Positions 13,901-63,235 of a stretch of 64,000 nt of DNA are shown one piece after another. Source of the stretch: Yuukianura sp. NJ FZ-2021. Its lineage: Eukaryota. How positions within the stretch are numbered: position 1 is the first letter of the stretch; every line of letters starts with the position of its first letter. The position numbers and the translations under genes were made by a program. Below the pieces are notes generated by a model. It made no database searches and was not told the origin of the DNA. It worked only from the letters and a program-made list of their open reading frames with translations. The stretch covers positions 11,532,001-11,596,000 of the forward strand of contig CM102286.1 of assembly GCA_046563655.1 (NCBI GenBank), read 5' to 3'.

Positions 13901-16472
13901 AGTGAAAGTGGTTGGACTGATCAAATCAGTAGGAGTACCGATACTTGCATCAACGGCTTCGTCGTATTGTTTCAAACAAGTCTCAGAAGTAGTGATAGGA
14001 ATGAGATAAGGCTCTTCGCGACTACAATAGCCGACTTGCAGGGTAGTCCAAAACCATTCTTCTTTGACCACTTTTACTTTTTCACGGTGGAACTGAATCG
14101 GCGTACTCACTGAAGCCGGAGTAAGAGTAGCTTGATTCCCGGGAACCTAAAATCGAAAATTCACAAATTAGGTGATGCTTTTTGGAAACTGAAGTTTAGA
14201 GAGGTTTAAAGTTGCTCACAGGAAATTCCACACGAGGTCGCTTAGGATTGTTCTGCATGTCTGTCGGTACTTCAGGTTGTGACGATTCGACTTGATCTTG
14301 GTGAAAATTTTCTCGCATATCATCCCGCAGCTTAACCCAATTCGATTCTGTGTGGACCACCTGAAACAAAAAAAAATTAACGTAAAAAAAAGACGCGCTA
14401 CTTTCCTAGGAACCACACTGTAAATGTTAGACTTTTTCGCACGTCGAGTACCGACAGGAAGAAATTTGCGATACACGTTAAGAAACAAGCGTGGCTTGCA
14501 GAATTTTGTTTTATTGCCTAAATACAACTACTAGGGGGGGGAAATCCAAGTGTGATCTCGTTGTCCCGCATACATCGGCACTTTTCGCACATCTCCGCTC
14601 ACCCATTCCCAAAATATTTTTTAAACGCAAAACCTTAATTTAAAAAGCTTATTAGTTATTATTTATTTACTTATGTCAAACTGATGTAAGAATATTGTAA
14701 AGCAAAATGGCGCTCGCTGCACAGCTACGCTCCTATTATTAACAAGAATATATTAACAAGAGGTCAAAATTTGGGAAAAAAATTCAAAATTTCACACTTT
14801 TAAAATTTTGAAAAAAAATCGCAATTTTGAAAAAAGTTCGAAATTTTGAAAAAAGTTCGTAATTTTGAAAACAGAAAACAATTTGGACAACCTAGGGAAG
14901 GAAAGCCGCTTTATTGAAAAACGTCGAATTTTATTTTTGCGGAGCTTTTTTTCTGCTTGCCACCATAATTCCTCATTTCCAGCCTGCCACTTTTAGCTTG
15001 AGGGACAATAGCAGTACCCATTTTGCTTTTCAATGTCACTAAATCAAGCTAATGAAGGTGCTTAATTTAAATTTCAAATGAAATATGTTCAAAAATACTT
15101 ACAATAATTAATTAATTGATATACAAAAATGAACTAATGAGAAAACCTAGAGGTTCCGGATGATGGTTATAGCTTAATTTTTACTTGAGCGGAAAGGCGT
15201 AAAAAGTGCCGACATGAGCCAAACACCTGATATTTTCACGGGACAACGAGATCACACTTGGATTTCCCCCCCTAGTAGCCAAGCCATTCATTGACCTTAA
15301 CGAGATTGCGCAGAGATTTGACTGGTGTGTTAAAACTTACAATATGGGTTGCTTGGGGGTCATCAGGTTCAACAACAGCACCATCCCTGGATATTACATG
15401 TGTAGTCAATTTGGATTTTAAGTCGTCGTCAAATCCTTCAAACCCAATTTTCAGTGAATAAAATGCTTTGCATGTCCAGGATTCCTGCGAGAAAGAAACA
15501 TTATGTCGTAAATACTTTTTCTTCAAAGAGAGTCAGCCTTATATGTATAACTTTGGAAAAAAAAACGTGCGAAATTGGAAAAGACCAAGACCAATCGAAG
15601 AGAAAAGCATGCCGTACCTAAAAGCATAATAATAAAGTCTTTACCATGTCAGATTCCCAATCCAACTGTGGGCAGTCACGTCGATTCCATAGATGATTTA
15701 TCCAATTAGGGTTCATAACTGGGACAGCAATTGCGCAAGCATCACGATATCTTTCTCCGCCGACTTTCTCAACAACCAAAAAGTCCACTTTTACTGCCTT
15801 CTCGAGAAATTGTCCTCCGAGATAAAGAATTTTCCGTCGCATCTCCACCTAAACAGTCAGACAAACGTTTAGCATGCTAGTACTAAAGATGAAAAGAAAC
15901 TGAACAATTGAAAATCGAACATAAGACAAAGGTATATGTACAATAATAAGAATCTTACCATCTTTTCCTTTGAGCGCATCCCAGTTATACTAAATGTTTT
16001 ATTCCCAAAACAAGTCGAATAAACCGGGTAACCAGAATCAGAGGGAAACTGTTCACATCCTCCCGTACGAAATGAAGCCAAAACAGCAGGCACTCCCAAG
16101 ATTACGACTTTAGGGTTATGTTGTGCACGTTTTCGGAGATGTTCGAAAATCGGTCCGTCGAATTCTTTGAAAATATAAATTGAGGGAATATCTGAATCAA
16201 ATGCAAATGCGCTTTCGTCAGTCTGAATGGGTTGTATTGAGCGTTCCTGCAATATCAATCAATATCAATTAGGATAGGTTAATGAAATGTCAGAATCAAT
16301 CCCCCCCCCCCCCAACACATATACAACAATACAGAATAATAATAATAAATTCATCAAACAAACCCCGAAGGGTTCAAGGAATTTCAACAGCACTTGCCTT
16401 TAGTATATTTTGAAGTTCAGTATGTTCCAAAAGGCAGTTGCCCACAAGATGTACAACTTTCTGGTCCTCCAT
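10930..16472 (-). CDS. ECT2: RhoGEF ECT2/pebble (BRCT-DH-PH), multi-exon; first intron GC-AG
   Basis: BRCT segments (IYIFKEFDGPIFEHL...PVYSTCF...ITGMRSKE; VMNPNWINHLW; VVKEEWFWTTLQ), DH motifs (HLIETERNYVAIL; GKQSLTELLIRPIQRLPS; INEGKRVTE) and a VSRALSL..TP C-terminal region. Confidence 0.92.
14534..15272. mobile_element. MITE in an ECT2 intron
   Basis: ~35-bp TIR G7-8AAATCCAAGTGTGATCTCGTTGTCCCG at both ends, flanked by TA (or CTAG). Internal ~20-bp tandem repeats at 14765-14870; no ORF. Confidence 0.85.
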
Positions 16473-22348: not shown

Positions 22349-24388
22349 CAGAGTGATTTTAAAGATCCAGACATAAAAACCCACTCCAAAACCTCTTTTC
22401 ATCTCCACCTCTCCAGTCAACTCCCCTTCATCCCGCGCAAACTCGTTCCCTCCGAAAGTTTATTTCGGTTAAGAAATTAGCGCGGCAAGAAAGCCAACCG
22501 ATGCTTTTTCTTTGATTATTACTTAATAAGTCACAGCAATTGGTTTACTCTCTCATTGTTCAAGTTAAATATAAAGTTAAAGTTAAATATTGTTAAATTA
22601 GTAATTCCCTAAAGTTAAAGAGTCATCCGGAGTTGAACGGACGCACAGCACTTCATGTAAGGTAAGTGATCAGTTATTATTGTGAAAATCTTTTCATTCA
22701 GTGATTTAGGGAAGTGTCATGAGGGGACTTCTGTTGTCGAAAACTGAAATCGTTGTTTTAATGCTTGACATTTTTTGCTTTTTAGTTGAACCATGACTGT
22801 CCGTTACTCAGAAGCTCAACGCCTTTTCATCATAAATCTGCGACTTGAACATAAAGATGACAATAGTACACAGCTTATGCTAAAGTACAATTCGGATCCA
22901 ATCTCTCATAACCGACCCATGCTCCATCCAAAAGATGTCAACATCATTCTAAAGAGATTCTCGGAACTGGGGAACACAAAGGATCGTCCAAAATCGGGTA
23001 GACCAAAGACAGCAACTGACGAAAATTCGGCGACTGGAATTCTTGGTGCTTTTGCGGCGGATCCGCACATTAGCACACGACAGATTGCCCGGGATATGGG
23101 GGTTTCTCAGACGTCGGTGCTAAAGGTCAAAAATGAAAACGGTTGGAAATCATACAAAGGAAGGGTACAGCAAGTTCTGAAACCTCCTGACGGCCCAGAA
23201 GGGGCGTGGTTTGCTCGTATTTGGCTTCCAGTTTTAAATGGAATTCCTGAGTACGCAAAAAATATTGTGTTTACGGATGAAGCAGTGATAAAGTTGGACG
23301 GAACTGTAAACCGACAAAATTACCGATATTGTTCAGATACGAACCCTCACTGGAATCTGCCAGGTATGATTTAAAAACTTATGAACGACTTTGACAGAGA
23401 GTTGTGGTTTGCCTCAAATTCCCCCTCATGCCGCATTCTGGATTTTTTAAAATATGGTGGGGTATTAGTGACTAGAATTTTTTTCCTCAAAATTTTTTTT
23501 CTTTTCTGTTTTTAGTCAAAACGCAATCAGCAGCAAAAGTAAATATCTGGGTCGGGCTATTTGGAGATGAAGTTATCGGCCCATTTTACTTCAATGGAAA
23601 TATGACCGGCCAAATCTACCTCAACATGCTACAGGGTCAAATTGTTCCCGCGATTCTACAATCCGCAACTAGACAGCAAATCCCGCACGCGGATATTATT
23701 TATCAACACGACGGGGCTGGACCTCACTTCGCACGGATCGTAAGAAATTTTCTTGACCAAGTGTTTCCCAATCGTTGGGTGGGACGGGGTGGACCTTATC
23801 ATTGGCCGGCGCGGAGTCCTGATTTTTCGCCACTTGATTACTTCGCCTTTGGCCACATGAGGTCCCGTATTTTCCTGACACCAAGACCTGTCACTGCGCA
23901 AGACCTAATGGCACGAATCGATGATTTCTTTCGTAACGATGTCACTCCAGAAATATTGAGAAATGTAAGAGAAGGATTTCGTACGCGGTTACAAATGTGC
24001 CTCCAAAACCATGGAATGCATTTTGAGCACTTAGATGATGGTCTAACTACCCCTCCATAATATTTTTTTGCCACATTTTGTTGACATGAAGATGTTGAGT
24101 CACTAATCATACTTCTGATTACTAATCACTAATTAATTATAAATGTTTCAAATTATTCTATTTTAAGCTAATAAATTCAAGCTTATGTCACTTTTCAACT
24201 CTAATTAATAGTTAGTGTTCAAAATTTTGATTTTTAAGTGTTTTGGTACAACACGAAGTGGCGCATTATTAGGATGTAGAAAACTTTCCGAACGGAGGAG
24301 GGATCCGCAGGGGGAGTTGATTGGGGAGGTGGAGATGAAAAGAGGTTTTGGAGGGGGTTTTTATGTCTGGATCTTTAAAATCACTCTG
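22349..24388 (+). mobile_element. Tc1/mariner DD41D (rosa/VS-type) transposon, 2040 bp
   Basis: ~78-bp TIRs CAGAGTGATTTTAAAGATCCAGACATAAAAACCC..., with TA duplicated at 22347-48 and 24389-90. Confidence 0.93.
22793..24060 (+). CDS. DD41D transposase, 371 aa, two coding exons (22793-23363, 23516-24060)
   Basis: HTH with GRPK, FTDEA, VNIWVG..IGPFYF, YQHDGAGPH and WPARSPDFSPLD. There are 41 residues between the 2nd and 3rd Asp. A 152-bp GT-AG intron joins the two ORFs in frame. Confidence 0.9.
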
Positions 24389-26989: not shown

Positions 26990-28007
26990 GCATGACCCAA
27001 CTAACAGCCAAGTTGTTTAACGAATTCCAATACAAATTATAGAAGTTGTTTTGATTAGAAAATAGACTTACGTGATTGTATTAACTAATACCTCAGAAAC
27101 AATTTAAATTCAATTTTTACTAAAATTGATATTATGTCATTCGAAGTAACAATTGCACTCTAATTTTTATTCACACAAACGACCATAATATAATAAAAGT
27201 TAAAAAGAAATGGTCGAAAAACCGAAAACTGAAAAAAAATTTTTTTTTATTCCTAAATTAGAAAAAAAAATAATTTATTTTACATAATTTTATTAAAAAT
27301 TTTTTATAATTTTTTTTATATTTTTAATGATTTTTGCAATCCATTAACACAATAATAACCTTTAATCACAAATATGCATGTTTGCCCATATGCGATGCGG
27401 GTGGACCCCGGATTGTTCACCTAATTCTAGAAGGGTTATTCATAATTAATGACGGTAGGGAAATGTAATGAAATTAACAACAACAAAAATTATGTTAATC
27501 ATTTGTTCTTTGTAGTCGTTTGTTTTCTGCAAATTAGTTCATTTTTGCACAAGTCATCCTAAAAATAGACGTTCGACTCTAGGTTTAGTCTTTTGTTGTA
27601 ACTCATTGTTTGTCTAGATTTACATCTAGTTAACTCGGCGCGTGTCGAGTCCCTATAAAAAGGGCTCGGCCGTGACCTCTCAATTCACTACAACTCCAAC
27701 TTTCAAACATAACGGAACTCTGTTCGTTCTGCGAACGAACCAGAGTTCATTCAACCCAAAAACTTTATTTCTGAATAAAAGTTATTTCTTTCTCCAAATA
27801 GCGAGCAACTTAGAAATAGCCTTCATTCCAGAACAACTAGATAGAGGCCATCGACCCTTCCTAGATAGTCATGGCGTTTTAGGAAGAGAAACGATCAAGA
27901 ATTAATTTACAAATAAGATAGAGATTGATTTGGCGGAGGTAGATGTTTCTTTGTTTGTTTTTTTTTGTTTATTTGTTTGGGTTAGAGTCGATGCGATGAG
28001 GGTTTAC

Positions 28008-28145
28008 GAGGGTTTCAAGAAATTGGTTCAAATGATCATTTTTAAACGGAAGACAATTCCGAAAGAAAATTTTCCATCGGGTGTTCTCGTACGTGCCAAT
28101 GAGAAAGGATGGATAAATGGAGATTTGATGGAAGATTGGAGGAAC
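28008..28145 (+). pseudogene. pogo/Tigger DDE_1 transposase remnant, continuation
   Basis: EGFKKLVQMIIFKRKTIPKENFPSGVLVRANEKGWINGDLMEDW matches pogo DG.KLPP.IIFKRKT.PK..FP.GV.V..N.KGWM. Confidence 0.75.
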
Positions 28146-28159
28146 AACTTTTTCAACAA

Positions 28160-28686
28160 TGAGGAACTTTTTTTTTTCAAAATTATCCGAAATTTCTTAG
28201 ATAAGACGCGTCTTGTAGTCAAGGAAATACGGTATATGGATTCAATTCCTATTATTGAAGGAGAAATTGATCATAAAATACCGAATTCTGATGCGGTGCT
28301 GCTGCGGAACAACGTTTTCAACCTGGTTGGAAAGTTTATGATACATGCCTGCATTCACAGCGGCATTGCATTCGTCGGTCTCAGCAAGGTCGTCTCAGAC
28401 TACGTGTTGGCGAGCTCCCCTGGTGTAGATTCAGGATTTGAAATAACTATTCAAGACGTCGCAGATCCGGACGTGAGGGATGCTTTATTGAAAGTAAGTT
28501 GGGTGCCCAAATTATTTTTCACGCCTAGACCTAGAAGCTATATAAACGCATTATTATTTGGATGAGTAGGTTGAGGCTTGGGACGAATCGAACTCTCCTG
28601 CAGATCGAGATTTGGCTCCAATCGAAACTATTCCTACTCAAGCTGAAATAAGCATGAAGATAACTTATGAAAATCGGCTTTGTTAA
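28160..28686 (+). pseudogene. HECT-domain (G2E3-like) E3 ligase fragment with retained intron
   Basis: IIEGEIDHKIP...FNLVGKFMIHACIHSGIAFVGLS...ITIQDVADPDVRDAL resembles the HECT N-lobe (F...G..I..S..HGG......LS; I.DV.D). GTAAGT donor at ~28494, then a short further exon. No catalytic C-lobe. Confidence 0.6.
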
Positions 28687-29202: not shown

Positions 29203-31237
29203 CTACTTTGACTTGTCCGAAATTGTGTATTTGGAGTACGTCTTGTTTGGGTCGTAAGGTTCCCACCTGGATGCGGGGAATATGTGCTTGTTCCTCTCAT
29301 ACCTGGTAAGAAAAAGAATTATGTATCTGGTAAGTTAAGTCAATTGTGAAAAAGTATTTACCAGTTCCGGATTAAGACCTTTCCGGCATGTGAGTCTTCT
29401 TTTTCACGACTGGCGTCGCTTTGTAGCCTGATGTCGTCGTTCGCAGTGAAAGCAAATAGAGGTCCGCTTTTCCCCCGAGCTTTTGTTACAATTAAATCGT
29501 AAAAGGAATAATGATGCGGCAAAATCAAATCCTCCTTCACGTACCTGTAATCAATAAAAGCATAGTAAAATAAAATTGCAAAAAAAATGTAATTACGCGT
29601 AACAAACTACTATTTTCCCTTCAACGTTTTTTGAATTAAGATGAAACCTTGGTTCCCCTCACATATGTAAGTAAAACTGTACCTTTTTATACTTTGATTG
29701 TCACATGATGCGAAGATGTGATTCACGCTCACATCTAGTATTTAGTTGGGTATATTTCAGTTTACGGGAGAGTTCACGCGTAAAAAAGAATAGCGTTTTT
29801 GCGTTTTACCGCAGTATGTTCAATTGGAGCGGAGATATGAAGGAAAATAGAAGCTAAGCGTCACGAAAGCTGGATTATGCGATTACAGAAAACGAACAAT
29901 TGTGAAGGGAAACGAATAATTTGTAACATAACGAATATGTGATATCTAACCTTAATGCAAGTTTAAATATTTCACTCCTACTGATTCATTTTTAGTGTTT
30001 CCAATAAGACACTTACATTAATTGGTCCGCCGTGACGCTTCTGAGTTCCCCAAATTCATCTCTCAAAGATTCCAGGCAGCGTTGCAGAAACTGGTAGATT
30101 GTTGTGCCTGTAAAGAACCAGAATATAACTTACTATTTAGTGAGTTTAGGTAATGACATTAAGTTTACCTTTCGACACTGTAATCACCCTACGATGTCCG
30201 GATCCATCCCAATAGCTGAATGTGACATCTATTTCCTCATTCTTCAAGGCCTCTTGTGCTGCTACCCATTCCTACTCCGGGAAAGCAACACAGCAAAAAT
30301 CAAATCATAAAAAACAAAGCCATCTTTACGTCAGCCGGTGCAAAGTCGCGCTACTTTAAGTACATTCCAGTTTATCGTTTCTCATAACATTTTTGTTGAG
30401 TTTTTGGGGTAACACCGCCCATTTGTATTGCGACTGATTTTAACCGAAATCTCACCTGCCTAAGGATTTCTCTTAGATGATTTTCTTCTTCCTCGCGCTT
30501 TCTATCCGGAAGGAAACTAGTATCCACGTCGGGGTTCTTTTTCCCGATTCGAGGTTTTTTTAACGGACAAGGTTTCGAAGCAGCCGCATCAGAATCAGAA
30601 GCGTCAACTTTCTCATCATCGTCTGCTTCAGATTCAGAGCCTGCGTCGTCCTCGTCCTCATCCCCTTCGTCTGCGGCAAATGACAGCGCTCGTATCTGCT
30701 TCATCTGTAGTTCCTTTTCAGCCCTTTTGGCGTGCAGTTCTTCTTGCTTCTTCTGCTCTTTCTTTGCTTTTCTTTGAGCTATTTTTATTTCTCGTGCCTT
30801 TATAACGGTATCTTGTTTTGCCTTCATTTCATCCAACGTTACTAGACCAATAGTGGAACTCTGGAAAGTAAAACAAGAAATGGTAATTACTTTAGTTAAA
30901 CAGTGAATCACTTTGCATGGGCTTGAATTCAAAAAGAAAAAAGTTAGAGTGACAATTCCTGTTCTATTTCGTTAGTAAATTAAATACAACAGAAGAGAGT
31001 TAATGTTTCTAGGAACAATCTCGGCAAATCATACCCAAATATATGAATAACGTTTACCTTCAGCTGAGCTTCAATGGCGTCATAGTGAACAGCAAATTTG
31101 TTTTCCATTTTATCAACTTTGAGTTCCTCCTCAATTTTTCTACGACGAACTTCGAGGTCGTGCGCTTCCTTTTCTCGCTTCTTCATTAATTGCTGAGCCC
31201 TCGAACCCTCACTCGCAGCTCCCTTGTATTGAGCCAT
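29203..31237 (-). CDS. FAM50A: FAM50/XAP5 homolog (6 exons)
   Basis: [83 protein letters not shown] and [18 protein letters not shown]. Confidence 0.95.
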
Positions 31238-32187
31238 CTGAAATTAATATATCGAAACTGAGTCTAAATTCCCCCAACGATTTTTAAGCGAAGTTTATAA
31301 AGATAAACTCAACAAACCTTAAGTAAAATGCTCGGCGGCTTTGGTGGTTTGAGTAATTGAAAATCCTAGTTCGTTCTTCGGTGGAGTAATAAAGGCAGCG
31401 TCCGGATGAGCTAATTACGATCTACGAATACACAAACATTTAGTAAAATGTCGGCTTTTTAAATAACAGCAACAGCAGCTTCAATCGACCTGTTCCGACG
31501 CCGAGTCCGAGTTGCGCCCGCCCACGGCCCACGGCCCAGGGCCCAGGGCCCACAGCAAGCAAAATTAAGATTTTCCCGAAAATAATCCGATAACTTCTCT
31601 TCCTTCTTCCGTGTTAGGTATTTTAGCCGTCGTATTGAATTGACTGCCCTCGGTAAGGACAAACTAATTAATGGGTTAAATCGGGTATTTATACTTTCGG
31701 TTGTGCTTATAAATCGGATCTGAACGGAGCGACAAGGACCTGGAAGGGATAAAAAAAAGAATAGGGAAACATATCAACGACGGGCAGTCTAATCCACTGA
31801 ATCCGCTGATCGTTCAAACTCCCATGCTGATTGCTTTGAATCGTGAGTCACGATTCGTGACTACGCGCAGTATAGGTTGTAACTTACAACTTGTAAAACC
31901 GGAGGTAATAAAGTAGCGCAAGCCAATGGGCGCACGATAGTGAATGTCGGCAATGAAAATCCATTATCTCTATCGAGCGACTTTTATCGTTCAATCGGTC
32001 AACGATTTGAAAAAGACGAATATGAATCTAAATGAAATTAAGCACGACTGGCGTGACATTGAATTTTAAGTTCATTAGAAAAAGACCAACCCGGACTCCT
32101 ACTTTTTTATTTTCCCACGACTCGAAATTAATTGATCGGATTGTTTAATTGAAATGAAAACAAAATTCTTCCGTACTTTTCAAATTT

Positions 32188-34280
32188 TTACATAGGTTTA
32201 CAACTGATTGGAAAACTTTCAAGTTCCTTGACGTCAATTCCTATGCCAAAGGATTTGGACTTGGATGGCACTGAGGGATGATTCGATTTCCCTGGTTTGT
32301 TAATAATTTCTTCTTTCTGGCATAGCTGAGAGGAAGATCTGTTGTGATTCATATGGGATGTTACTAGATGTCCAGCGCTCAGTGCACTCATCAGTGACAG
32401 CTCCCCGGCGAGTACTGCTGCACAAATGATACGGGCAAATGTTCTTGCATTTTCTCCGGGATTTTCCGGGTGAGGACCATCCACACCTAACATTTTGAGA
32501 CAAGCTAACTGCGGAGGGAGTACTGTTCCTCCACCAACAGTACCAACCTCGATGGAAGGCATAGTGCAACTGATGCGTAGGTCTTTTCCGTCTGTGCCAC
32601 AGCGTTCCATCATTGTCACGCAGTTGCTGCTACCAACGTTCTGGGCAGGATCCTGAAATATTCATTTTGTTATTAGGAATTGTGAAAAGACTAACTTTAT
32701 CTGAATGGTACACAAAAAAAAGTGCTGGCGATGGTGAAAGGCGGGTAGTTGATAGCAGTATGTCATTAATTGTAAATAAATGAAGAGAATAAAGCGGAGA
32801 ATAAATAAAATACATGTATATCTATGTTTCTAAATGTTTAGGTATATTTTTACCTGTCCGGTTGCGATAAAAATTGCCGTAACGATGTTCGACGCGTGAG
32901 CATTAAATCCTCCGATTGAGCCAGCCATAGCGGATCCTACATAGTTCTTTGCAATATTTAGTTCAATCAGAGCTTCGACGGATGTCTTAAGTAATTTCTC
33001 CACAACACTCCCCGGTACAACAGCTTCCGCGACTACCGACTTTCCTCTTCCTTCTATCCAGTTAACGGCAGCTGGTTTTTTATCAGTGCAGAAATTCCCA
33101 CTCAAAGCCAAAATTTCCATTTCTGGGAAAACATCGTCGCGTAATTTCTTGAGCATTACTTCTGTGCCTTTAGATATCATGTTCATTCCCATTGCATCGC
33201 CTGTTTTTGCTATAACTCGAATGTAGAGGTTTGTTCCTGCTATTGAGCAAGTAATTTTTTCGAGTCGAGCATATCGACTAGAAGAGTCAAAGTTAGTTTT
33301 GAGTTGGGACAAATTCTTCGGATCTTCCAGCCAAAGCATTGCTTCCGCTGCTTGTCTCGCACTTGGGAACTTCACAACCGGTCCTCGGCTCATTGCATCC
33401 CGTACAATTGTACTTTCTACGCCGTTGGTAGACAGAGCTCTGCATCCGCGATTCGTGCTTGCTATTAAACATCCTTCCGTCGTGGCCATTGGAATTTGAT
33501 ATGACTTCCCATCCACTATCAGTGGGCCAGCAACTCCCACGGGTACGGGAATAAAGCCAATTACATTTTCACAGCAGGCTCCTAAGACCTTTGAATAGTC
33601 GTATCGTTCGTACGGAAGGTTCGTTAGGATATCATGGTGAACACGATCAGGAGATTGTGGAAGAGCATCGCTTACAAGTTTCCTCCTTTAAAAATAGGAA
33701 CAAAAATTAGCATAGTAAATCATTTTAACGCGCTACTATTCATTAGTGTTGTTTGTTATAGTAGAATTCAGAATTGCAAAAATTGGAAAATTCGCTAAAT
33801 AAAATTCGCCAAATTAGTCTTCAACAAAGGTAATTAACACGACGCTACAATAGCATTGTAGCATCGTGTCGCATTGTCTGTCCGTTACAGAACAATATGC
33901 TATTTCTGAAAGTTAGGAGGTAGTTAGATCCGTGAGGACATGATTTCTCGATCGATTGAAGCGGCCCGCCCGCACAACTTTTTGAGGGAACACGGAACAG
34001 CTCATCAGCTCATGCAAAGGCATGAAACCCATGAAGAAAGATTAACTAGGCTTATATTAATGTAGGACGCTTGCCAGTCTCAGTGCCCACTTCTTCTAGT
34101 TCTAAAAAAACGTTTAGAAACTGACCTGATTGCAACTCCCCGCTCAAAGTCTCCACATACTTTTTCCAACTCATAGGTAGAGATGTGCTTCTCGCGGACC
34201 AACTGAACTATTTCATCATCCGATAAACACTTCGCGGAACCTTGAGCTCTGAAGGTAGCGAGCGCTTGGGAGGAAATCAT
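32188..34280 (-). CDS. HMGCR: HMG-CoA reductase (class I), catalytic domain only, 483 aa (exons 34280-34126, 33685-32854, 32652-32188)
   Basis: [69 protein letters not shown] and [12 protein letters not shown]. In-frame TAA (34302-34304) lies 8 codons upstream of the ATG. Confidence 0.93.
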
Positions 34281-34834
34281 TAGGTACTTTGCAGTTCCAA
34301 GTTAAATGTTGACAGGTCAACGTGTGTATTTGTGTATACTTGGATTTGGATCTGTACGTGTCCCACTCCCAACAATGACCAAGATCACCTGAGCAAATAG
34401 ACGTAAACTTCAATGTTCCGTTCCGTTAAGTTTCGAATTAACGTAATGAAAAACTCTTTTCTTGCTTATTCATTCTTACCTGAATCTGTCAGAATCTTTC
34501 TTCTAAAACTTCATCATTTAAAATCCTTCATTTGTCCCTGCTCGCAATAGGAACTGAGTGAGTACATATCGGATTAGGTTGGGGAGGCAGCAGACGACGG
34601 AAGATGAAGGACGAAGGAAATTATTTCAGGGAAAGTTAGATTCTATTCCACAGAAAGGGAGAAGAGCGAGCTGTGTTTTGTACAGTTATACAATACCATA
34701 CATCCCATAGTGGTATACTAATATTGCAATTGCATCATCGTTACGTGGCACACTAATCCTCTGGGTTGTCGGACTCCTTTGATGCCTGAGATTCGCGACA
34801 GCTTACTATCATTTTACTTACGACCAGATAAATT

Positions 34835-35146
34835 TTTTTTTTTTTTTCCAAAATATAAAAAAAGTTTATTATTCTCTGTTAAGGCATAAATACGCATTCA
34901 GAGACATTGAGCCTTAATTTAAAAACACTTGGATGAAACTTAAATACTAGAGATAAAATATTTCCAATAATTCTCTTCCGGGAGGAAGCGTTCCTAAGAT
35001 TGAGGCACAGTTGCCACGTTGCATTTCAAGGCTAATTCTCTGGAAAAGGAATGACGTGGCTTTCTGTTCCCCAGTGTAGTCAGCAATCCGTTGGCCAATA
35101 GACTTCAGTATCTTCAGACCTTCGTCTCCAATGACCCCGGATGATT
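34835..35146 (-). mobile_element. 5'-truncated non-LTR retrotransposon (CRE-like RLE C-terminus) with poly(A) and 9-bp TSD
   Basis: Minus frame ...KSIGQRIADYTGEQKATSFLFQRISLEMQRGNCASILGTLP...* followed by AATAAA and a poly(A) tract. AGATAAATT is duplicated at 34826-34834 and 35147-35155. Confidence 0.8.
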
Positions 35147-35373
35147 AGATAAATTCTATAAATGATTTGAAACGCAAACTCCCTATTCGTTATCGTTCCT
35201 GTGGTGTTTGTTCATTTTTTAATTCTTTGTTGAATTTCCGGGAATGTATGTTTTTCAAGAGGGAGATACGCCGGGAAAGCTTAATAAGCACGCACCGATG
35301 AGGCGCCCTTACTTAGGCCGTCAACTATGTTTGACGGGCCTATTTCAGTTTTCCGGAGATAACTTCGACATGC

Positions 35374-35575
35374 TCTAGCTTTTTGAAATTTGGAATTTTT
35401 TTATTATTATACTCTAAATTTCATATTAAATTTCTAGCTTTTTGAAACTTGGAATTTTTCTTATTATTATACTCTAAATTTCATATTTAATTTCTAGCTT
35501 TTTGAAATTTGGAATTTTCTTATTATTATACTCTAAACGTCATATTAAATTTCTAGCTTTTTCATTATATTATAC
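35374..35575. repeat. ~59-bp AT-rich tandem repeat, ~3.4 copies
   Basis: TCTAGCTTTTTGAAATTTGGAATTTT...TTATTATTATACTCTAAATTTCATATT repeated. Confidence 0.9.
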
Positions 35576-37010
35576 TTTAAAGTAAAAGTATTTGCTGGGG
35601 GTGAAGACACCACAGGATCAACCAGTAATTCATATCATGATATTACAACCGTTCATGACGAAATCATACGGAGAGCTTTATACACGAGGCGGTAATTGAA
35701 TTACCGCCTTAATTAATTGAATTTAATTCAGAAGTCGAATAGTAGAGACCGATTTCCAAACATTGTCAAACTCTCACCAGACCGCTACACGCGTTACATT
35801 CTCTCACTACAGTCTTTCACTAGTTTCGTGTATAACATTCCGGTACACCGCATTCATGGAATACGGAATATTTTTCCGTTTTGACCGTTATTAGAAACGG
35901 ATATTTATTCGCTTCGGTAAAATGCCTGTGTTCTGAAATACTCACTCCTCATTCCTCCGCAGTGAATGTAAAGATAATTGAAATATTTACAGTTTTTATT
36001 CAAATGTCTGTTTTTAAACAGTCCTTGTAATTTACTCATACCATATAGATAATTAACTAGCCCTTACGAATTCCATAATCGTAATAAAACAATAATAAAA
36101 CAGAGTTGCTGAATTATCATTCTTTCTGGCAAATAAAAAAAAACAACAAAATACACATTCATTTATGGCAGTAGAAAATTTTTGGCAGTTGCTAAATAAA
36201 TTATGAGACCTTGGATTGTATACGCTATTGAACACAAAGGAATAAATGTATCAATTGCTTACTAGTAAATGGAAATATAATATAAATGATAATAATAATG
36301 ACAAAACCTTAAATACGCCAGGGATTGCACTTTAGTTTGGGAATTGCTTCCTTAAATTATTAAATTATTTGAACTATTTTACATTTCCTTAAACCCCGCG
36401 TTTAATGGTTCAAGTAAGCAGTGCTGTTCAGGAGAGGACAAATTGCCTTTCTCCGATCACACTGCTTACATCATTCGACCGCGCTTAAATTATGAATGTA
36501 TCCGGATGGACAAACATACGTAATCAAACTCTATGATTGATTTCCACGGTGGAAATCCCACCCCCTAACGACGCATACTTGGAGTTAGCAATGATTTCTG
36601 TTTTGCGATAGAATTCGCTGCTTAGTGTCAAGGTGAAACAGAGTATTGATTGAATCAAGGTTTGTGGCGTCTTCCAGATGCAACTGATCCCCCAAGGAAA
36701 TAAAAGTTAACATGGCAACAGAATTTCCTATGTACACGTACATTCTCTGCAACTTACAGACTGCAAGCAAAGCAAAGGCACCTTCTTAAAACTCGATTAA
36801 AGCTAATTTATGCAACCACATTGTCTGTCTGTTCTTCGGTCCGTCAGGCGTCGTTTGTTTCTGTAATGTCAAAGCAGGGAATTTTTCAGAGTTTCCTCCA
36901 AATATACGTCATTTTGCATTCCATCCTATCCATAAATATCGACGTGAATTTACCCCTCAATAAAATTCGTACCTAACTAAAAGTATTACACTAACTTGAC
37001 GCAGTTATTG

Positions 37011-40000
37011 CTAGCATGCACTTTCCATCCGTTTTTTCTGCCTACGTCGATATTCAAAAAACTCCTCTTTCATGGCGGCGACCCGGGCTTCCATATTTTC
37101 ATACCGATCTCGAGGTCTGCGGAGTCTGGACGTAGTCGACGCAGACGGAGTGGTAGTTACCATTGGGCCTGGGAGGTACAAACCTGGCACTTGCGTTGAA
37201 CCGATTTCGGGAGATGTATCGGGAATGATGGGATCAAATTCATATGGATCATCAACTGACATGTCATGTATAGTTCTTGCACCGGGGCTCGGTTCGGACA
37301 CAGGAACCGTTGGAGCTGAGGCTCGTTCATCTATATAGTGGTCAAAAATGTACGGAGATCGTGTAGGTGCGGGTGAGAAAGCCTGGGACATGAATACATC
37401 ATGTCGTGGCCAATTCTCGTAAGTACCCGAAGCTTGGTGACGAGTTTGTGAAGGATAATGTAGGAACTCGGGTGGAACAGCGGCGGGTGTTTCCGGGAGC
37501 GCAGTGGAGGACAAAAGAGGATGACGTTGACCAGGGATACTGCCACTCGAAGGTCCGGAAGTGGTAAACTTACTGCCACTAAGAAAACCGGAAGAGGTAG
37601 AAGGTTCGTGAAATTTAAAAACAGTAGAGGATTTAGACGCTCCTTCACTGCGAGAAGTATCCAATTGTTGGCGTGGAGGGAACCGTATAAACCGTGGTGC
37701 ATGTTTCTCAAGATAGTCTAGGTCACGAGCAAGTATATCTCGAATTCGTTCGGCTTCCCACGGCGGAGGAGTGGGGTCGCTGCCAGGGTTATAACCGCTT
37801 GTTGTGGCAGTACTCCAGAGGTAGTCAGGGCGTTGATGAACTTGGACTAGAACGGGTAGACGTGTCACTGAATTAAGGTCAACTTCAACTGGGTACAGTA
37901 CACTTCTGCGAGGAACAGGGCTAAACCGACCAAATGGTGCACTTGAAACAGGGATTGAAACCAGTTCCTCGTTTCTGAAGGAAGTAGACGAAGGCATGAA
38001 ACTTCTAGGAAGCACGAGGTTGAATCGCCGGCGTCCACGAGGATAAAAACGAAGTGGTTGCGGAGCCAAAAACCCTCCATCATCTGAGTTTTCTTCTATT
38101 GCGCCTGCGGAAAATTACGAAAAAAAAATTAATTAAGCCAAGTTAGTATTAAAATTTGTCTGAGCTTCACAACTACGAAACGGTGATGGCGGTGAGGATT
38201 AAACTGAATAAAGTTGACGTTTCTACGAGGTTTGTATATTAGCCGGAATCGGAGCAATACCCATGTTACACTTTATTAAGTACCGAAAGTATGAGCTACT
38301 TTATGTTTTTTCCCGAGTCTGTCTGTCTATCTGTATGCTGGACACCATAACTCTGGAACCACTGGACCGATTTTCAATCTGTTATCGCAGATGAACTTCG
38401 AATGGTCCAGGGGTAATTCATCGGTTTCTGGTTTGTCCGGAAATGCACAATTTCCGAGATGTGACTTTCAATTTCCTTTCGCTACTTACATACGGCGTTT
38501 ACAGCGGTTTATTTATTTCTGAATGTTTACGGTAAAGCAAAAGCCACTAACGGGCTAATTAACCAACAAGCAACTAACTGTTTAGACCAGGATTAAGGGG
38601 TTTCCGACATTGTGAGTAAGGTGATAATGTTTAAGATGAGTACCTGTACTAAGATGTGGTATAAGATGCGATGTCGACGTCGAGAAGTGGGGATGTTGGG
38701 TGGCCCGGAGGAGAGCGATGTCTGCCAGAGAGAGTGTGATGCTGGTAATGGATGGATGGTGGCCCTTCTTCGTTGTTGTAATGATGGCGTGGGGGTGCTT
38801 GCGGGGGAGATCCGATAGGCGAATAATGCAAAGGCCCACCGACCGGCCTACCCATCGATAAGCTCTCTTCGCCCACGAAGTCACAACGAGTACTCGGCCT
38901 ACTCCACTCCTACAAAAAATTTATCAAAATCTCAGTCCTTTGCCCACAACAAAACTATTCAAACCAAGATGTGAACTAATAGTAGCATCCTAAGTTTTAT
39001 TTTAAAGTCGTTGGTATGCTTTTGTATTCTTCGTAGAATGTGAATAGCGTTGAAGGAATAAATTGTTGCCCACGTCATCGAAAGTTAAATTTGGCGCTGG
39101 CGTTCTTTAATTTGTTGTTAGTAATATAGTCAACATGACAACATGTTTTTCTAACACTGCATGTGCAACGCGAGAAATATTTTTTTTAAATAAAGCTGTA
39201 ACCAAATGATACGCAGTTGAAACTATATAAATTAAATCAATACTTAACTGTTCCACTGTTCTTCTGCCTGCTGGCCGCGGTAAAGAAAAAAGATGAATAC
39301 TTCGTTTAACCGTATGTTGTACAAGGGGGGTTGAAACATTTTAGTGGAACGGGTAAAAATGAGTTACATAAAATACATTTAATGCAATACCTTTTTACAG
39401 GAACTTGAGGTTGTGCAGGAATTTGGCCTCCATTTCTCGAATCCGTCAGTCGACAAGCAACCATGTTATACGCTACAAACGTATAAGAACATACGCATTA
39501 ATAAAATGTAATTACTTCGGTTAAACTTCTTGTACGGCACCTTTTTCTTGTTTCCGTCTCTTCCTTCTGTTACAAATTTTGACAGCGCAGACTGAGAGAA
39601 TGATGGCAACAATGAAGAACAGGATACCACCTACCAGTCCAGCGATTATAGCTCTCTGTTTGTCACGTTCGGGGACATAGAATATCACTTCCTCGCTATC
39701 TCGGGAAGTTCCTGCTACGTTGTAAGCAGTAACCCGGATTGTGTAGTTTTTCTTCTCTTGTAAGGTTCGAGCTGAAACAGAAGTTTCCGATACAATTATG
39801 AATTAGCAGTAAAGAAATAGGAATATATTGTAAAAAGTACTAAATTTAAACCGTTTATTCCACAAATGTTTTTTCGTTATGGAAATTGTAAAACTTAAGT
39901 TTGTAGGGGTATGTCACATTGACACAAGTAGTAGTGTGATGTACGGCTGGCATACGTTTATGGTAGCTTGATCTCAACCAACTGATTAGAATGAGGACTA

Positions 40001-48008: not shown

Positions 48009-48892
48009 AATAAACCGTTGTAAACGCCGTACGTAAGTAGCGAAACGAAGCTAGAGTGCACTTCCGGTAAAACCGGAGCCGTATTAATCACCCCCTATGC
48101 CAAACTGACTTACGAAGACAGATTGCAAATCGGTCCAGAGGTTTCGAAGGTATAGTTATAGTGCAGACAGGCAGACGGACAGATGGACAGAATCGGGGAA
48201 AACATAAAGTAGGTCATACTTCCCCGAGTAGGACGAGGGACGCACTTTTGCAACTTTTATCGTCTGTATCTCTGTAACCATAGGTCAAAGGTCAAGGTCA
48301 CCTTTACAAAAGTTGTTCAGCCCAATGAGATAAACAACTTTTGTAGAGGTCATTTTTCCCGATTTCTGTCATTAAAGCATTTGACCTTGACCTTTGACCT
48401 GGACCTGGACAACTTCCGGTCAAGCTGGACACTGATTAGACACCCCTGGAACATGTGAAGCGCAAATGTGAAGACAGATTGAAAATCGCTCCAGTGGTTC
48501 TGGAGTTATAGACGCGAATATAACGAGTGACCCCATTATGCAACTTCTAAGGTCTATATCTCCAGAACCCCAAGTCAAAGGTCAAGGTCACCTATACAAA
48601 AGTTGTTCAGTTTAATGAGATGAACAGCTTTTGTAAAGGTCATTTTTCCGATTTCAGTCATAAATGTACTTGACCTTGACCTTTGACCCTTAAGGGGTCT
48701 ACTTCCGGTCAAACCGGGCACCGATTGTTTACCCCCACACCATGTCAAGTTCATCTGTGAAGATAGATTGGAAATCGGTCCAGCGGTTCCAGAGGTAGCT
48801 TGACCAGCAGACGGACGGACAGACGGACGGACGGACAGACAGACAGACAGACTCGGGGGAAAACATAAAGTAGCTCATACTTTCGCTACTTA
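48009..48892 (-). mobile_element. Family-B HINE-like element
   Basis: Reverse-complement homolog of 4939-6130 with one fewer internal repeat unit; same termini. Confidence 0.82.
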
Positions 48893-49433: not shown

Positions 49434-52400
49434 ATGTTAGTCACTAACACTGACAGACCTTCACTGTTCAACGCTATTAACAATGGAACTGGGAGCAAAG
49501 ACCAATCACCAGGAGCAGTACCTGGTGAAAAGACGTGGAACGCTTTCGTTGAAAAAAGTGAAACACGGAGCAAAAGAGAAAGTAACAGCCGAGATCAAAG
49601 CATGAGAAATAAACTTCTTGCAAAGACGATGTAAATAAGTATCGTCAGATCAATTATAGAGAATTCCCACGCCGGATATTGTTGACCTAGACCTCTGATA
49701 TTGCTAGAGGTAACTTGAGGTCAAAGAGCATTTGGCATTATATTAATATTAATGCTAATATTATATTAATTAATATTATTAATATTAATATGTATACATT
49801 AATAAATATTAATATATACAATATTAAAATTAATTAATTTTAATATATATATATGTATATATATATAATATTAATTAATATATTATTAATAATATTAATC
49901 CTCGCGGCGTCAAAAATCCATCCCCGAATTGTGTAAAAAAGATGACCTTGACCTTTGACCCTGCTAGAGGCCACTCAAGCTCATCAAAATCGGATCCCCG
50001 CATTCCCCTTTCGAGTCTGCCCATCCGTTTCCGTGATGTAAATGGAGCATAACCTTGACCTATGACACCAATAGAGGTCACTTAAGGTGAATCCAAAAAC
50101 TGATTTTTAGTCATCTGGTTTGTAGTTACTCATTAAAAAGCTGCAAGGTCACAAAGTTGTTGTCTCAATGCGATGAACACCTTTTGTAAGGGTCATTTTT
50201 TTGATTTCCGTGAAAAAATGTGCTTGACCTTGACCTTTGACCCGGAAATTGGCCACTTCCGGTCAAACCAGAGACCGATTAGTCACCTCTGTACCATGTG
50301 AAGGTCATCTGCGAAAACAGGTTGAAAATCGGTCCTGTGGTTCCTGAGTTATAAACGCGCGTAGAATGAGCGACGCCATTTTGCAACTTTCATCGTCTAT
50401 ATCTCCAGAACCGTAGCTCAAAGGTCAAGGTCACCTACAGCAAAGTTGTTCCCCTCAATGAAATGAACAACTTTTGTAGAGGCCATTTGTCCAAATTCCG
50501 TCGAAAATGTACTTGACCTTGACCTTTGACCCGGAAGTTGGCCACTTCCGGTCAAACCGAAAACCACTTGTCCACCCCTGGACCATGTGCAGTTCATCTG
50601 TGAAGACAGATTGAAAATCGGTCCAGCGGTTCCAGAGATATTGTGGCTAGTATAGTCGGACGGACAGACGGACGGACAGACGGACGGACAGACGGACGGA
50701 CAGACGGACGGCCATTACGATTCCTATAAGTATCTGACGATACTTAATAACAAATGGAGCAAGTTTAAGTTGAAAAACACTGGAAGATCTTGTGACCCTA
50801 AATTGTGCTGGTACCAGCCATCCGTGGAATCATTGCCGATGGATTTTTGTAACAATACTTCCCTCCACGGATTGAAGTATTTGGGGCAAACGAAGCGCCA
50901 TCTCACTGAAAGGTAATAGAAAAGTTTTAGAAAGATTCAGTGAGCAACGTGTCAAAAGTTGAGATTGCACGTAAAACCTAAATGCAAACTTGTCTTAAAA
51001 TTTTACTGGAATTTTTGTTTTTATTCACCGAACTGCTTTTTCGGTAGAATTTTCTGGCTGATGGCATTTCTGATTGGCTGTTTTGCCGCGGTTTATTTAA
51101 TTTCTGACGTCTGGAGGAGATATAGAGATTCTCCAGTCATTGTCTCATTTGAACCGGAAGAAACCAACATAGATCAGATTCCATTTCCAGCAGTCACAAT
51201 TTGCAACATGAACAAAGTTCTCAGAACGAAGGCAATGAAGTACCAAGAGTAAGCAGGTTTATGGAATGGAAGCTAAGAAATTATCAAATTTTGAATCACC
51301 GAATTTTTTTTGTTTCAAATTAAAAAATTTTTCAGTGATTCTCGACAACCATATCACAATCGTACGAGTGACCAAAATCTTTACTACCTGGACCATGTTT
51401 GCTCTTCATCAAAAAGTTTTACTAAGAGGTTCAATTTGACCAGTCGCGGAGACGTTGACGTGGAACTCAAAATGAAGCTTGCTGATTGGCAAGTCGAGGG
51501 AACTCGAAACAACCGAAGTTACGTTAGTCGCTTTTTAATTGCAGCTTCTCAACCTTGTGAAGAAATGATACGTCTATGTACTTGGAAAGACAAAGTACAC
51601 AATTGTGACCACATTTTTCGTTCTATCGAGACGGACTTTGGGAAATGTTGCACATTCAACATGGTACCGCAGACGCTATTGCACAGGAAGAGGTTCGTAA
51701 TTTCTTCAAAAATGTTCATAAAATGTATCTCTGAACTGAAATTTGTTATTGTGGTAACAAAAACTAGAACTGATGACCGTGACGACCCGGCAGAACTAAA
51801 GCTTTGGAACATTTCGAACCTTGAGGAGACTTGGCTTCATTCAGATGGAAAACGGAAGGATCTGCCGGAAGATGACCTTCGACCCAGACGACAGAACCAA
51901 GCTGGAAAATCATTTGGACTTTCCATACTACTGGATCCAGCATTGAACGAGTACTTCTGCACAACCTCGGATTCTACTGGATTTCGTGTAAAAATGAGCA
52001 ATTTACGCATCAACGCAGTGCGCGTTGCTTTCATTGTAGTACTTTCAATTTTTCTTTCAGTTGGCCACGCATCTATCAACTGAAAACCCACATGTAATTG
52101 ACTATGGAATTGCCGTGATGCCGAATTCTGAAATGTTCATCAGTTTACGTCCAGAACTCACCAAAGCTGATAACACCATTCATGGATACCCCTTGGTAGA
52201 TTCACAAATAGTACTTACTGCATTTGAAATTTCGTTAACTAGATTGTTATATACTTCCTTTAAAAATTATTTCACAGGCTTCCCGAAATTGTTACTTTCC
52301 ATACGAGTTCAACTTGACATACTATGAGTACTACACGGCATCTAACTGTGTTGACGAATGCATCGCCGGTAAATTCTCCTAACTTTTTGTTTTACAATAG

Positions 52401-53590
52401 CCATGTTATGTTGAATTAAAAAAAACAGCCTTGTAAAAAATTTCTTCATAGATACAGTTTTTAAGGAATGCTACTGCGTGAGGTACTACATGCCAAGTAA
52501 GATAAATCAATGGTTTCTTAACTTCCGCATTTTACAGAAGTTGTAGTTTTAAGCAAATGAAAATTTTGGAATATCAGGAGGAGACAATGATCGACCATTA
52601 TGTGGACCTGGAAAATTCGCTTGCGTCGAAAATGTTACACGTAAGTCCAATTATCAATTGATACTAAACAAAAATGAAAACAATACTTTACTAAAAATAT
52701 TTTTCTTAATTTTTAAGGCGGCCTGGCGGATATTGGGTTGAAGCGAAACTGCAGCCATTGTTTACCATCTTGCACGGAAATTACTTACTTTGAAGAAACC
52801 ACCACTGCGCCACTACAAACTGACAAAAATTGGAAGAACAGTGAAGAATCTCATTCACACCTGTAACATTTTATAAAAGCTACAGAAAATTTATACATTC
52901 GAATTGAAATATTATATTGATTCTATTGATTTTCAGAGCATCAGCTAATTTCAGTATAGTCCATATTTACTTTGGTCAGGACAGCACTTATGCCAGAATC
53001 CGCAAGGAGTTGTATGGAACAACTGATTTATTCGGTAATTTCACTCCACCACTTAACCTACCCCATGATTCCAATTAATTTCAAAAGACACGCCACAGTT
53101 GAAAAGTCTCTCCCAACCTTACTTTCCAGCCAATACTGGAGGGTTAATGGGTCTCTGCCTTGGATTTTCTGGATTGAGTGCCATGGAGGTACTCTACTTC
53201 CTCACATTGCGTGCTTGGTGCAGAAAAAGACGGAGACGCAGTCTTGGTGCCAAGGTTGCTGCAAAATTTCGGGACTTGTGGATCAAAGCAAAGAACACTG
53301 GAAAATATAGAAACAGTCGAGCATCTACGTCGACTCAGAAGTCATTTATTAAAGCACGACATCCAACACCAACAATTGTAGATCAGGATTTTCATGGAAG
53401 TAGTCGCCTTGTATTCGCTCCACAACGGCATGTCTTATCCCCGAATTCACGATCTGAGCGGATTTTGAAAAAAACGCTTTCTTTTGTGGAAACGCCGGAA
53501 GAAAATCCGTTACCCATTTACAGTGCGTTCATCAGAGAGATTAGTCCATTTTATGCATCTCGACAACACGGAAATTCTGAATTTAATTAA
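49434..53590 (+). CDS. Pickpocket-type DEG/ENaC channel; exon 1 interrupted by a HINE (alternative start ATG 50839)
   Basis: FCNNTSLHGLKY (HG motif), TM1, IPFPAVTICNMN, ETDFGKCCTFN, Cys-rich thumb exons and ANTGGLMGLCLGFSGLSAMEVLYF (TM2, GxS). All downstream exons splice in frame. Confidence 0.88.
49608..50745 (-). mobile_element. Family-A HINE-like element inserted in ppk exon 1
   Basis: AATAAACTTCTTGCAAAGACG..TAAGTATCGTCAGAT at one end and TAAGTATCTGACGATACTTA at the other. Contains an AT-only expansion at ~49740-49900. Confidence 0.85.

Positions 53591-60057: not shown

Positions 60058-63235
<3,178 letters not shown>

Follow-up and report, generated by a model that had tools for sequence, protein, structure and literature searches.

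In a 64-kb stretch of the genome of Yuukianura sp. NJ FZ-2021 (contig CM102286.1, positions 11,532,001 to 11,596,000; hereafter the window, with positions counted from its first letter), the minus strand carries a gene for 3-hydroxy-3-methylglutaryl-coenzyme A (HMG-CoA) reductase (HMGCR), which sets the rate of the mevalonate pathway; this gene encodes the catalytic domain of the enzyme and has no recognizable membrane region. The eight-helix membrane domain with the sterol-sensing domain (SSD) is a textbook fixed feature of animal HMGCR and the seat of its feedback control. On balance we consider it probable that the window gene is a functional HMGCR consisting of the catalytic domain only, that it lacks a membrane anchor and that it represents one case of an SSD loss that extends across the springtails. 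What is new here is that HMGCR without an SSD appears to be a springtail-wide pattern of which the window copy would be the most reduced example.

The gene comprises three exons (34280-34126 / 33685-32854 / 32652-32188) encoding a product of 483 residues, and the two introns, 440 and 201 nt long, are bounded by canonical GT and AG dinucleotides. Coding exon 1 (34126..34280; 51 full codons and 2 nt) starts with the ATG at 34280-34278, contains the beginning of the catalytic N-domain and ends with ERGVAI-R. Intron 1 (33686..34125; phase 2, GTCAGT...TTTTTAAAG) occupies the site ERGV.IR|R, which is common to the HMGCR genes of springtails and other animals and at which the exon-1 open reading frames (ORFs) of relatives stop. 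Coding exon 2 (32854..33685; 832 nt) encodes the bulk of the catalytic domain, including E122 (33477-33475), the DAMGMN motif and K254 (33081-33079). Intron 2 (32653..32853; phase 0, GTAAAA...TTTCAG) lies between Q329 and D330, and an intron at this position is also present in the metagenome relatives P0001-P0004 and L001. Coding exon 3 (32188..32652) supplies D330, the GTVGGG motif, H429 (32355-32353), Ser435 (32337-32335) and a 48-residue tail that ends in ...FPISCKPM, with Cys480 (32202-32200) at position -4, before the TAA stop codon at 32190-32188. An AATAAA that likely serves as the polyadenylation signal follows ~80 nt past the stop (32106..32111). The coordinates given for this locus in the initial annotation, which was made from the sequence alone and had described the gene as a naturally soluble animal HMGCR, all agree with the sequence.

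The only Pfam family in the product is PF00368 (HMG-CoA_red), where the match of exon 2 (E 4.3e-96) spans profile positions 13-271 and that of exon 3 (E 6.4e-38) positions 271-368; exon 1 matches no family. Exon 2 also matches the catalytic chain of human HMGCR (1dq8_A, E 3.2e-112) and is 64-71% identical to insect HMGCRs. The catalytic residues listed as intact in the initial annotation are indeed all kept, i.e. E122 (TTEG), K254 (DKK), D330 (GQD, a motif that intron 2 divides) and H429 (SHM), whose counterparts in the human enzyme we take to be E559, K691, D767 and H866. Both cofactor motifs, DAMGMN and GTVGGG, are likewise kept, as is, at the level of the motif, the AMPK-type site S435 (HNRS). 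By profile and by residues, the class I HMG-CoA reductase catalytic domain of the window gene is thus complete.

Several observations bear on the integrity of the gene. The nearest retrievable relative, the 1963-bp metagenome locus L001, contains both window introns and is 71% identical over 378 codons; the crude ratio of nonsynonymous to synonymous substitutions (dN/dS) between the two is ~0.09 (LWL85, 378 codons; dS saturated). The window protein deviates at five of 187 near-invariant columns, compared with a median of 1 and a maximum of 9 among 77 sequences and with 2-7 in springtails, and R203T and F209V are among these departures. With an undamaged reading frame, intact splice signals, the full set of catalytic motifs and a dN/dS of ~0.09, the gene looks functional and shows no sign of decay.

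The 64-kb sequence, which contains no N, yielded no SSD exon. As queries for tblastn we used 18 HMGCRs from insects, a mollusc, an echinoderm, a cnidarian rich in transmembrane (TM) segments, springtails and a tick; seven of them have a Pfam-scored SSD, and the cnidarian query is without a Pfam SSD match. These queries matched only the three catalytic exons, with all remaining high-scoring segment pairs at E >= 0.28; no SSD exon came to light on either side of HMGCR, in the 30 kb that lie upstream or in the 32 kb that lie downstream. Within the 2.7 kb that separate the HMGCR start from the stop codon of the neighboring turtle gene (34281-37010), the longest stop-to-stop ORF on the minus strand has 66 aa and none contains multiple TM segments, in agreement with the initial annotation. 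Two hydrophobic stretches in this interval were considered as membrane exons and rejected. The one ATG-started ORF with a hydrophobic 19-mer starts at 36162, encodes 32 aa with a Kyte-Doolittle (KD) hydropathy of 1.55 and lies in poly-T DNA; a TM-like frame at 36251-36331 (VFKVLSLLLSFILYFHLLV) is without an ATG, lies within an AT-rich micro-repeat and is attributed to chance. The N-terminal extensions of eight relatives also gave no match upstream of the window HMGCR. In total, the N-terminal multi-pass region with PF12349/PF02460 that characterizes canonical animal HMGCR is absent from the window gene.

This absence is shared with other springtails. A domain survey of longer homologs covered the best 120 of 7189. 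Five of these 120 entries are springtail-named (two from Allacma fusca and one each from Orchesella cincta, O. dallaii and Folsomia candida), and in all five PF00368 is the only family; most insects in this set have PF12349 and PF02460 in addition. For both Folsomia isoforms (X1 and X2), both Orchesella species, Allacma 590 and P0125, a direct Pfam scan (E <= 1) likewise gave PF00368 and nothing else; in that scan Schistocerca and a tick transcript scored for PF12349 and PF02460. An absent Pfam match is by itself no proof that an SSD is lacking, as a sea anemone HMGCR is without a match and yet has six TM segments. By hydropathy, springtail HMGCRs have 0-1 N-terminal TM segments versus 5-6 in canonical HMGCRs. 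Given that none of the five springtail-named entries has a Pfam SSD, the loss looks lineage-wide rather than peculiar to the window copy. This result also revises the initial annotation, which had proposed a soluble, feedback-resistant, cytosolic paralog: the catalytic domain without SSD or multiple TM segments stands, and the named springtail HMGCRs are likewise SSD-less, but a special paralog beside a canonical gene is not supported, since no springtail-named entry has an SSD.

The springtail HMGCRs differ in what precedes the catalytic domain. The models comprise two isoforms from Folsomia candida (X1, XP_021944857.1, 870 aa, and X2, XP_035702065.1, 702 aa), one each from O. cincta (ODN05034.1, 650 aa) and O. 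dallaii (648 aa), and from Allacma fusca CAG7726650.1/CAG7726649.1 (583/590 aa) and CAG7723341.1 (partial), the last species having at least two HMGCR genes. No TM segment is present in the Orchesella proteins, Folsomia X2 and P0125, and there is one in Allacma 583/590, which begin with a TM helix, and in Folsomia X1, where it lies at residue 139 (KD 2.57), ~230 residues upstream of the N-domain. As X1 and Allacma 583/590 keep this one upstream-encoded helix, a cytosolic location, as assumed in the initial annotation, is not assured.

With respect to the Folsomia gene, RefSeq isoform X2 begins right after the sole TM helix of X1 (P0241 / P0147), which suggests that alternative starts may yield anchored and soluble HMGCR from one gene. 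A 474-aa "HMGCR-like" RefSeq model from the tick Dermacentor silvarum (P0060 / P0247) was considered as a soluble parallel and rejected as N-terminally truncated, because its 753-aa transcript-derived mate in the same 90% cluster has an SSD.

Combining these data, we suggest that the SSD-bearing membrane region was lost in the springtail lineage and that its place was taken by a single TM helix, by a hydrophilic extension or, in the window gene, by almost nothing. For the window HMGCR we infer from the sequence where translation starts, that the enzyme is soluble and active, and how it is regulated. Translation, most likely from the ATG at 34280, would give a soluble 483-aa enzyme with N-, L- and S-domains followed by a C-terminal tail, and this enzyme would produce mevalonate from HMG-CoA and two NADPH in the cytosol, presumably as a tetramer, an oligomeric state that we take over from the human structure. 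AMPK-type phosphorylation of Ser435, which adjoins the catalytic His429, could still switch the enzyme off. In this model, the control left to the cell would consist of Ser435 phosphorylation and transcription, and the SSD route, i.e. Insig-dependent, sterol-accelerated degradation, would be gone.

The 5' end of the gene is decisive for this model. As noted in the initial annotation, the coding sequence begins at the catalytic N-domain and an in-frame TAA (34304-34302) closes the reading frame 8 codons 5' of the ATG. Homology to other HMGCRs starts at ~34274-34262, and the window protein has 19 residues ahead of LSDDE, the shortest such segment among the relatives (40-370 in the others). Within a putative non-coding leader proposed earlier (34388..34560), TCAGTT at 34557 resembles an initiator, GTAAGA after 34480 would serve as the donor and the AG before 34388 as the acceptor; these signals are present as candidate sites, and the 108 nt from 34388 to the HMGCR start (34388-34281) contain no ATG.

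Several points weigh against an anchor-less enzyme that starts at 34280 and belongs to a springtail-wide class: (i) a plausible 3' splice site, a pyrimidine-rich stretch followed by AG (TTTCCTCCCAAG|CG; 34264..34279, a pattern in the sequence), lies within codons 2-6, and its use as an alternative acceptor, if it occurs, would possibly let the exon begin at 34264 in phase 1, joined to some upstream coding exon; (ii) the ATG at 34280 has a weak context, with C at -3; (iii) the exon-1 frame of L001 is open for 84 codons further 5' and part of this open stretch resembles P0263 upstream of the Met of P0263, and therefore relatives may have extra 5' coding sequence; (iv) Folsomia X1 and Allacma 583/590 encode their TM helix in separate upstream sequence; (v) the absence of an SSD-bearing HMGCR from springtails was judged from the best 120 of 7189 homologs and not from genomes; and (vi) the grouping of the window gene with springtails, described below, is modestly supported, and no set that includes the window sequence reaches an SH-aLRT of 95 or more.

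The first four of these points favor a rival model, in which an upstream coding exon, spliced via the AG at 34265 or another acceptor, was missed and adds one TM helix or a hydrophilic extension, so that the enzyme would be SSD-less but anchored or longer, similarly to Folsomia X1 and Allacma 583/590. The arrangement in Folsomia, where X2 starts just after a helix that lies far upstream of the N-domain in X1, and the N-terminal helix of Allacma 583/590 provide precedents for such an exon. Several observations argue against it: as possible hydrophobic coding sequence, the 2.7-kb spacer before turtle offers only the 32-aa ORF in poly-T DNA and the ATG-less TM-like frame in the micro-repeat, the N-terminal regions of the eight relatives find no match there, and the putative acceptor lies at no intron position seen in relatives. 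We therefore regard a missed exon as possible but rather unlikely.

It is very unlikely, in our view, that the gene is a silent or decaying partial duplicate, in which the catalytic part was copied without its 5' exons and a working HMGCR resides elsewhere in the genome. Such an origin would fit the shortest N-terminus among relatives, the unusual R203T and F209V substitutions at near-invariant sites, a location that is not conserved, with turtle and HMGCR on different scaffolds in Folsomia, and the presence of at least two HMGCR genes in Allacma; however, the 483-codon frame is intact over two canonical introns, the catalytic and cofactor motifs are all present, the crude dN/dS is low, the departures at conserved sites are within the springtail range and the end branch of the window sequence (0.55) was not flagged as long. 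An assembly or scaffolding artefact, with the SSD/TM exons of a canonical HMGCR misplaced or located upstream of turtle, is the least probable explanation: although truncated models do occur, as in D. silvarum, the window has neither an N nor an SSD exon on either side of the gene, a complete gene on the same strand ends 2.7 kb upstream, and the SSD is also absent from independent annotations of four other springtail species.

We return to the proposal that the window gene belongs to an SSD-less springtail class and consider its closest relatives. No protein in a collection of 5.8 billion is identical to the window HMGCR; the best match, P0001, is a metagenome exon with 78% identity on an 8172-bp contig, which is not among the 80 metagenome loci (of at least 531 confirmed loci) that were compared with the window. 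L001 is the only close relative with the same introns among these 80 loci. A phmmer search with the 58 residues around the window start against 1.84 billion representatives returned 30 exon-1 matches, most of which are single-exon ORFs that end at ERGV.IR, i.e. at the same intron position. Except for one that runs into the intron, the parts of these relatives that precede the domain all stay below KD 1.6, and ~25 unnamed exon-1 ORFs are likewise without an SSD or a multi-TM N-terminus. In the closest of them (P0261-P0265; 53-60% identity), 40-65 hydrophilic residues precede LTDEE and three of the five start with MT.ES; P0262 is the exon-1 ORF of locus L001. Two further matches, P0259 (2515 aa, without the ERGV motif) and P0276 (581 aa, without any HMGCR motif), are repeat proteins and were discarded as spurious. 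Separately, within the 181 aa of P0260 an HMGCR exon-1-like segment (..REILALLQANHLAEYNLEKELGDYERGVLI..) occurs three times in tandem, which looks like the local triplication of an exon in a relative.

For the phylogeny, 44 rows and 472 columns were analyzed in a quick IQ-TREE run with plants as the outgroup and protist sequences not included. The window HMGCR falls beside the metagenome exons P0001-3 (SH-aLRT 87) and not beside any named species, in an 11-row group that contains all named springtail sequences (SH-aLRT 85) and lies inside the hexapods, far from fungi and plants. The question raised in the initial annotation, duplication or horizontal transfer, is answered in part: the gene nests in arthropods and keeps ancient animal intron positions, on which grounds horizontal transfer was rejected; with SH-aLRT values of 85-87, the window gene may be either an old springtail paralog or an ortholog in an unsampled springtail order.

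The C-terminus provides a further link to the springtails. Cys is at -4 in all seven springtail HMGCR C-termini (the window, P0125, P0126, P0136, P0146, P0147 and P0211). The window protein ends in CKPM (32191-32202) and the other springtail proteins in CKQS/T/A/F, the tail motif being FPISCKPM in the window versus FPTECKQS, LPECKQA and GPDCKQT. The window protein therefore combines three features of the proposed springtail SSD-less group, i.e. no SSD, an end of the form '[FL]P..CK..' with Cys at -4, and the grouping in the tree (SH-aLRT 85-87). In a CaaX box, the signal for prenylation, a Cys at -4 precedes two residues that are usually aliphatic and a final residue that sets specificity; the window end C-K-P-M has the Cys at this position and M as its final residue, but K and P are non-aliphatic. 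Psyllid HMGCRs end in CVSS/CISS. The motif 'P.CK' is ancestral, and beetles, bees and vertebrates have it with a different spacing to the C-terminus (-5/-6 in the beetle and vertebrate proteins); because of this the CaaX reading of the springtail ends is only a lead.

A second candidate for an alternative anchor lies in the N-termini of the Orchesella type, in which three conserved islands, [FY][FY]DA.[EDQG], 'KF.VG' and 'R.V.ECL.IY', are embedded in a variable extension. The first island, located 20-36 residues from the Met, resembles the FFAT motif, which binds VAP proteins and has the core [FY][FY]DA.E in an acidic tract. Of 145 sequences in which 60 or more residues precede ERGV..R, this FFAT-like core is present in 10 (P0136, P0146, P0266, P0267, P0269, P0270, P0274, P0277, P0282 and P0283), all of them SSD-less, and in no SSD-bearing sequence; the 483 aa of the window protein contain no [FY][FY]DA. 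Judging from the motif, the core might tether HMGCR of the Orchesella type to VAP proteins of the endoplasmic reticulum (ER) and in that way replace the lost membrane domain. A more general scheme, which we put forward tentatively and hold to be doubtful, is that springtails swapped the SSD anchor for a set of interchangeable ones, namely FFAT-like docking to VAP proteins, a TM helix that can be dropped (X1/X2) and a farnesylatable Cys at -4, and that the 483-aa form of the window is the end point, cytosolic or held by a prenyl group only. If this scheme is correct, the farnesyl group would come from the pathway of HMGCR itself, and neither an SSD nor integral anchoring in the ER would be required for HMGCR function in an animal.

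Comparison with known systems helps to place the window gene. With canonical animal HMGCR, such as the human and insect enzymes, it shares the class I catalytic domain with its E/K/D/H residues and the Ser near the His, the ancient intron after ERGV.IR and 'P.CK' near the C-terminus (as in beetles, bees and vertebrates); it differs in lacking the N-terminal SSD region (PF12349/PF02460) and the linker that bears the 'F.VG' motif. With other springtail models it shares the absence of a Pfam SSD, '[FL]P..CK' with Cys at -4 and the position in the tree, but these models have 85-370 residues before the N-domain versus 19 in the window. These residues include a single TM helix in Folsomia X1 and in Allacma 583/590 and the FFAT-like core plus 'KF.VG' in Orchesella, and the window protein has neither feature. 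The HMG-CoA reductases of trypanosomatids and Naegleria are soluble eukaryotic class I enzymes that are reported to be mitochondrial and to have an N-terminal leader. In contrast, the window gene nests in arthropods, in a tree without protists, and has no N-terminal extension, which points to an independent origin; a mitochondrial presequence was considered and rejected, as the alignment to the N-domain of other HMGCRs already covers residues 5-19 and leaves no room for a leader. The engineered truncated yeast Hmg1 (tHMG1) and plant HMG-CoA reductase, which has two TM helices and no SSD, similarly have a catalytic domain freed from a regulatory membrane domain, but tHMG1 is man-made and the plant enzymes keep their two TM helices.

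Our literature search returned no account of springtail HMGCR architecture or of an FFAT motif in HMGCR, the matches being co-mentions, and nothing that could be used on Insig or on insect HMGCR. Arthropods are sterol auxotrophs. An SSD-less class in hexapods would represent a natural experiment on the purpose of the SSD in animals that are unable to make sterols, and springtail HMGCRs would provide soluble animal enzymes tried out by evolution, as natural counterparts of the truncated yeast Hmg1 obtained by engineering. The class raises the questions of where an anchor-less HMGCR is located, how mevalonate flux is controlled without an SSD and whether FFAT-like or prenyl anchors act as substitutes. 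The suggestion in the initial annotation that a feedback-resistant HMGCR supplies high-flux terpenoid synthesis is circumstantial, the sole link being the terpene synthases of Allacma and Folsomia. Active canonical terpene synthases are reported in these two genera and none in Orchesella (PMC11665903), and the springtail SSD loss may connect with this terpene chemistry.

Upstream of HMGCR, on the same strand, lies turtle, with the last coding exon, encoding the C-terminal tail, at 37011..38114 (minus strand; 367-aa frame, the stop-to-stop frame starting at 37011, 2.7 kb from the HMGCR ATG) and with Ig and FN3 exons at 39.8-44.4 kb. The identity of this neighbor is borne out by a match of the 367-aa frame to protein turtle isoform X2 of Folsomia candida (46% identity, 98% query coverage, E 6.5e-65); the remaining six matches are aphid turtle proteins with a coverage of just 21%. 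As the Folsomia protein is by far the best match, the window is identified as springtail (Collembola) DNA, with which the tree and the C-terminal tail motif of HMGCR agree. The spacer between the two genes contains the tandem repeat described earlier (35374..35562; 59 bp x 3.2 copies) and a 65-aa ORF (34947..35144, minus strand) that had been labeled a retrotransposon stub by a resemblance seen by eye; it matches no Pfam family and the label is unconfirmed. Directly downstream of HMGCR is a lysine/glutamate-rich gene (30372-31243, minus strand). Farther away are a RhoGEF gene with a BRCT-like exon (12000-16300, minus strand), a mariner-like transposase remnant with a helix-turn-helix (22790-24060, plus strand), a DDE_1 remnant (27906-28565, plus strand), an amiloride-sensitive sodium channel (ASC) gene (50944-53590, plus strand) and an exon of S-adenosylhomocysteine hydrolase (62270-62542, plus strand). 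Finally, a dispersed repeat with the frame ..SVRPSAGQA.SGTAGPI.N..SQMNLTW.. is present in three copies (4946-5260, plus strand; 48575-48874 and 50418-50714, minus strand) and probably represents a family of transposable elements.

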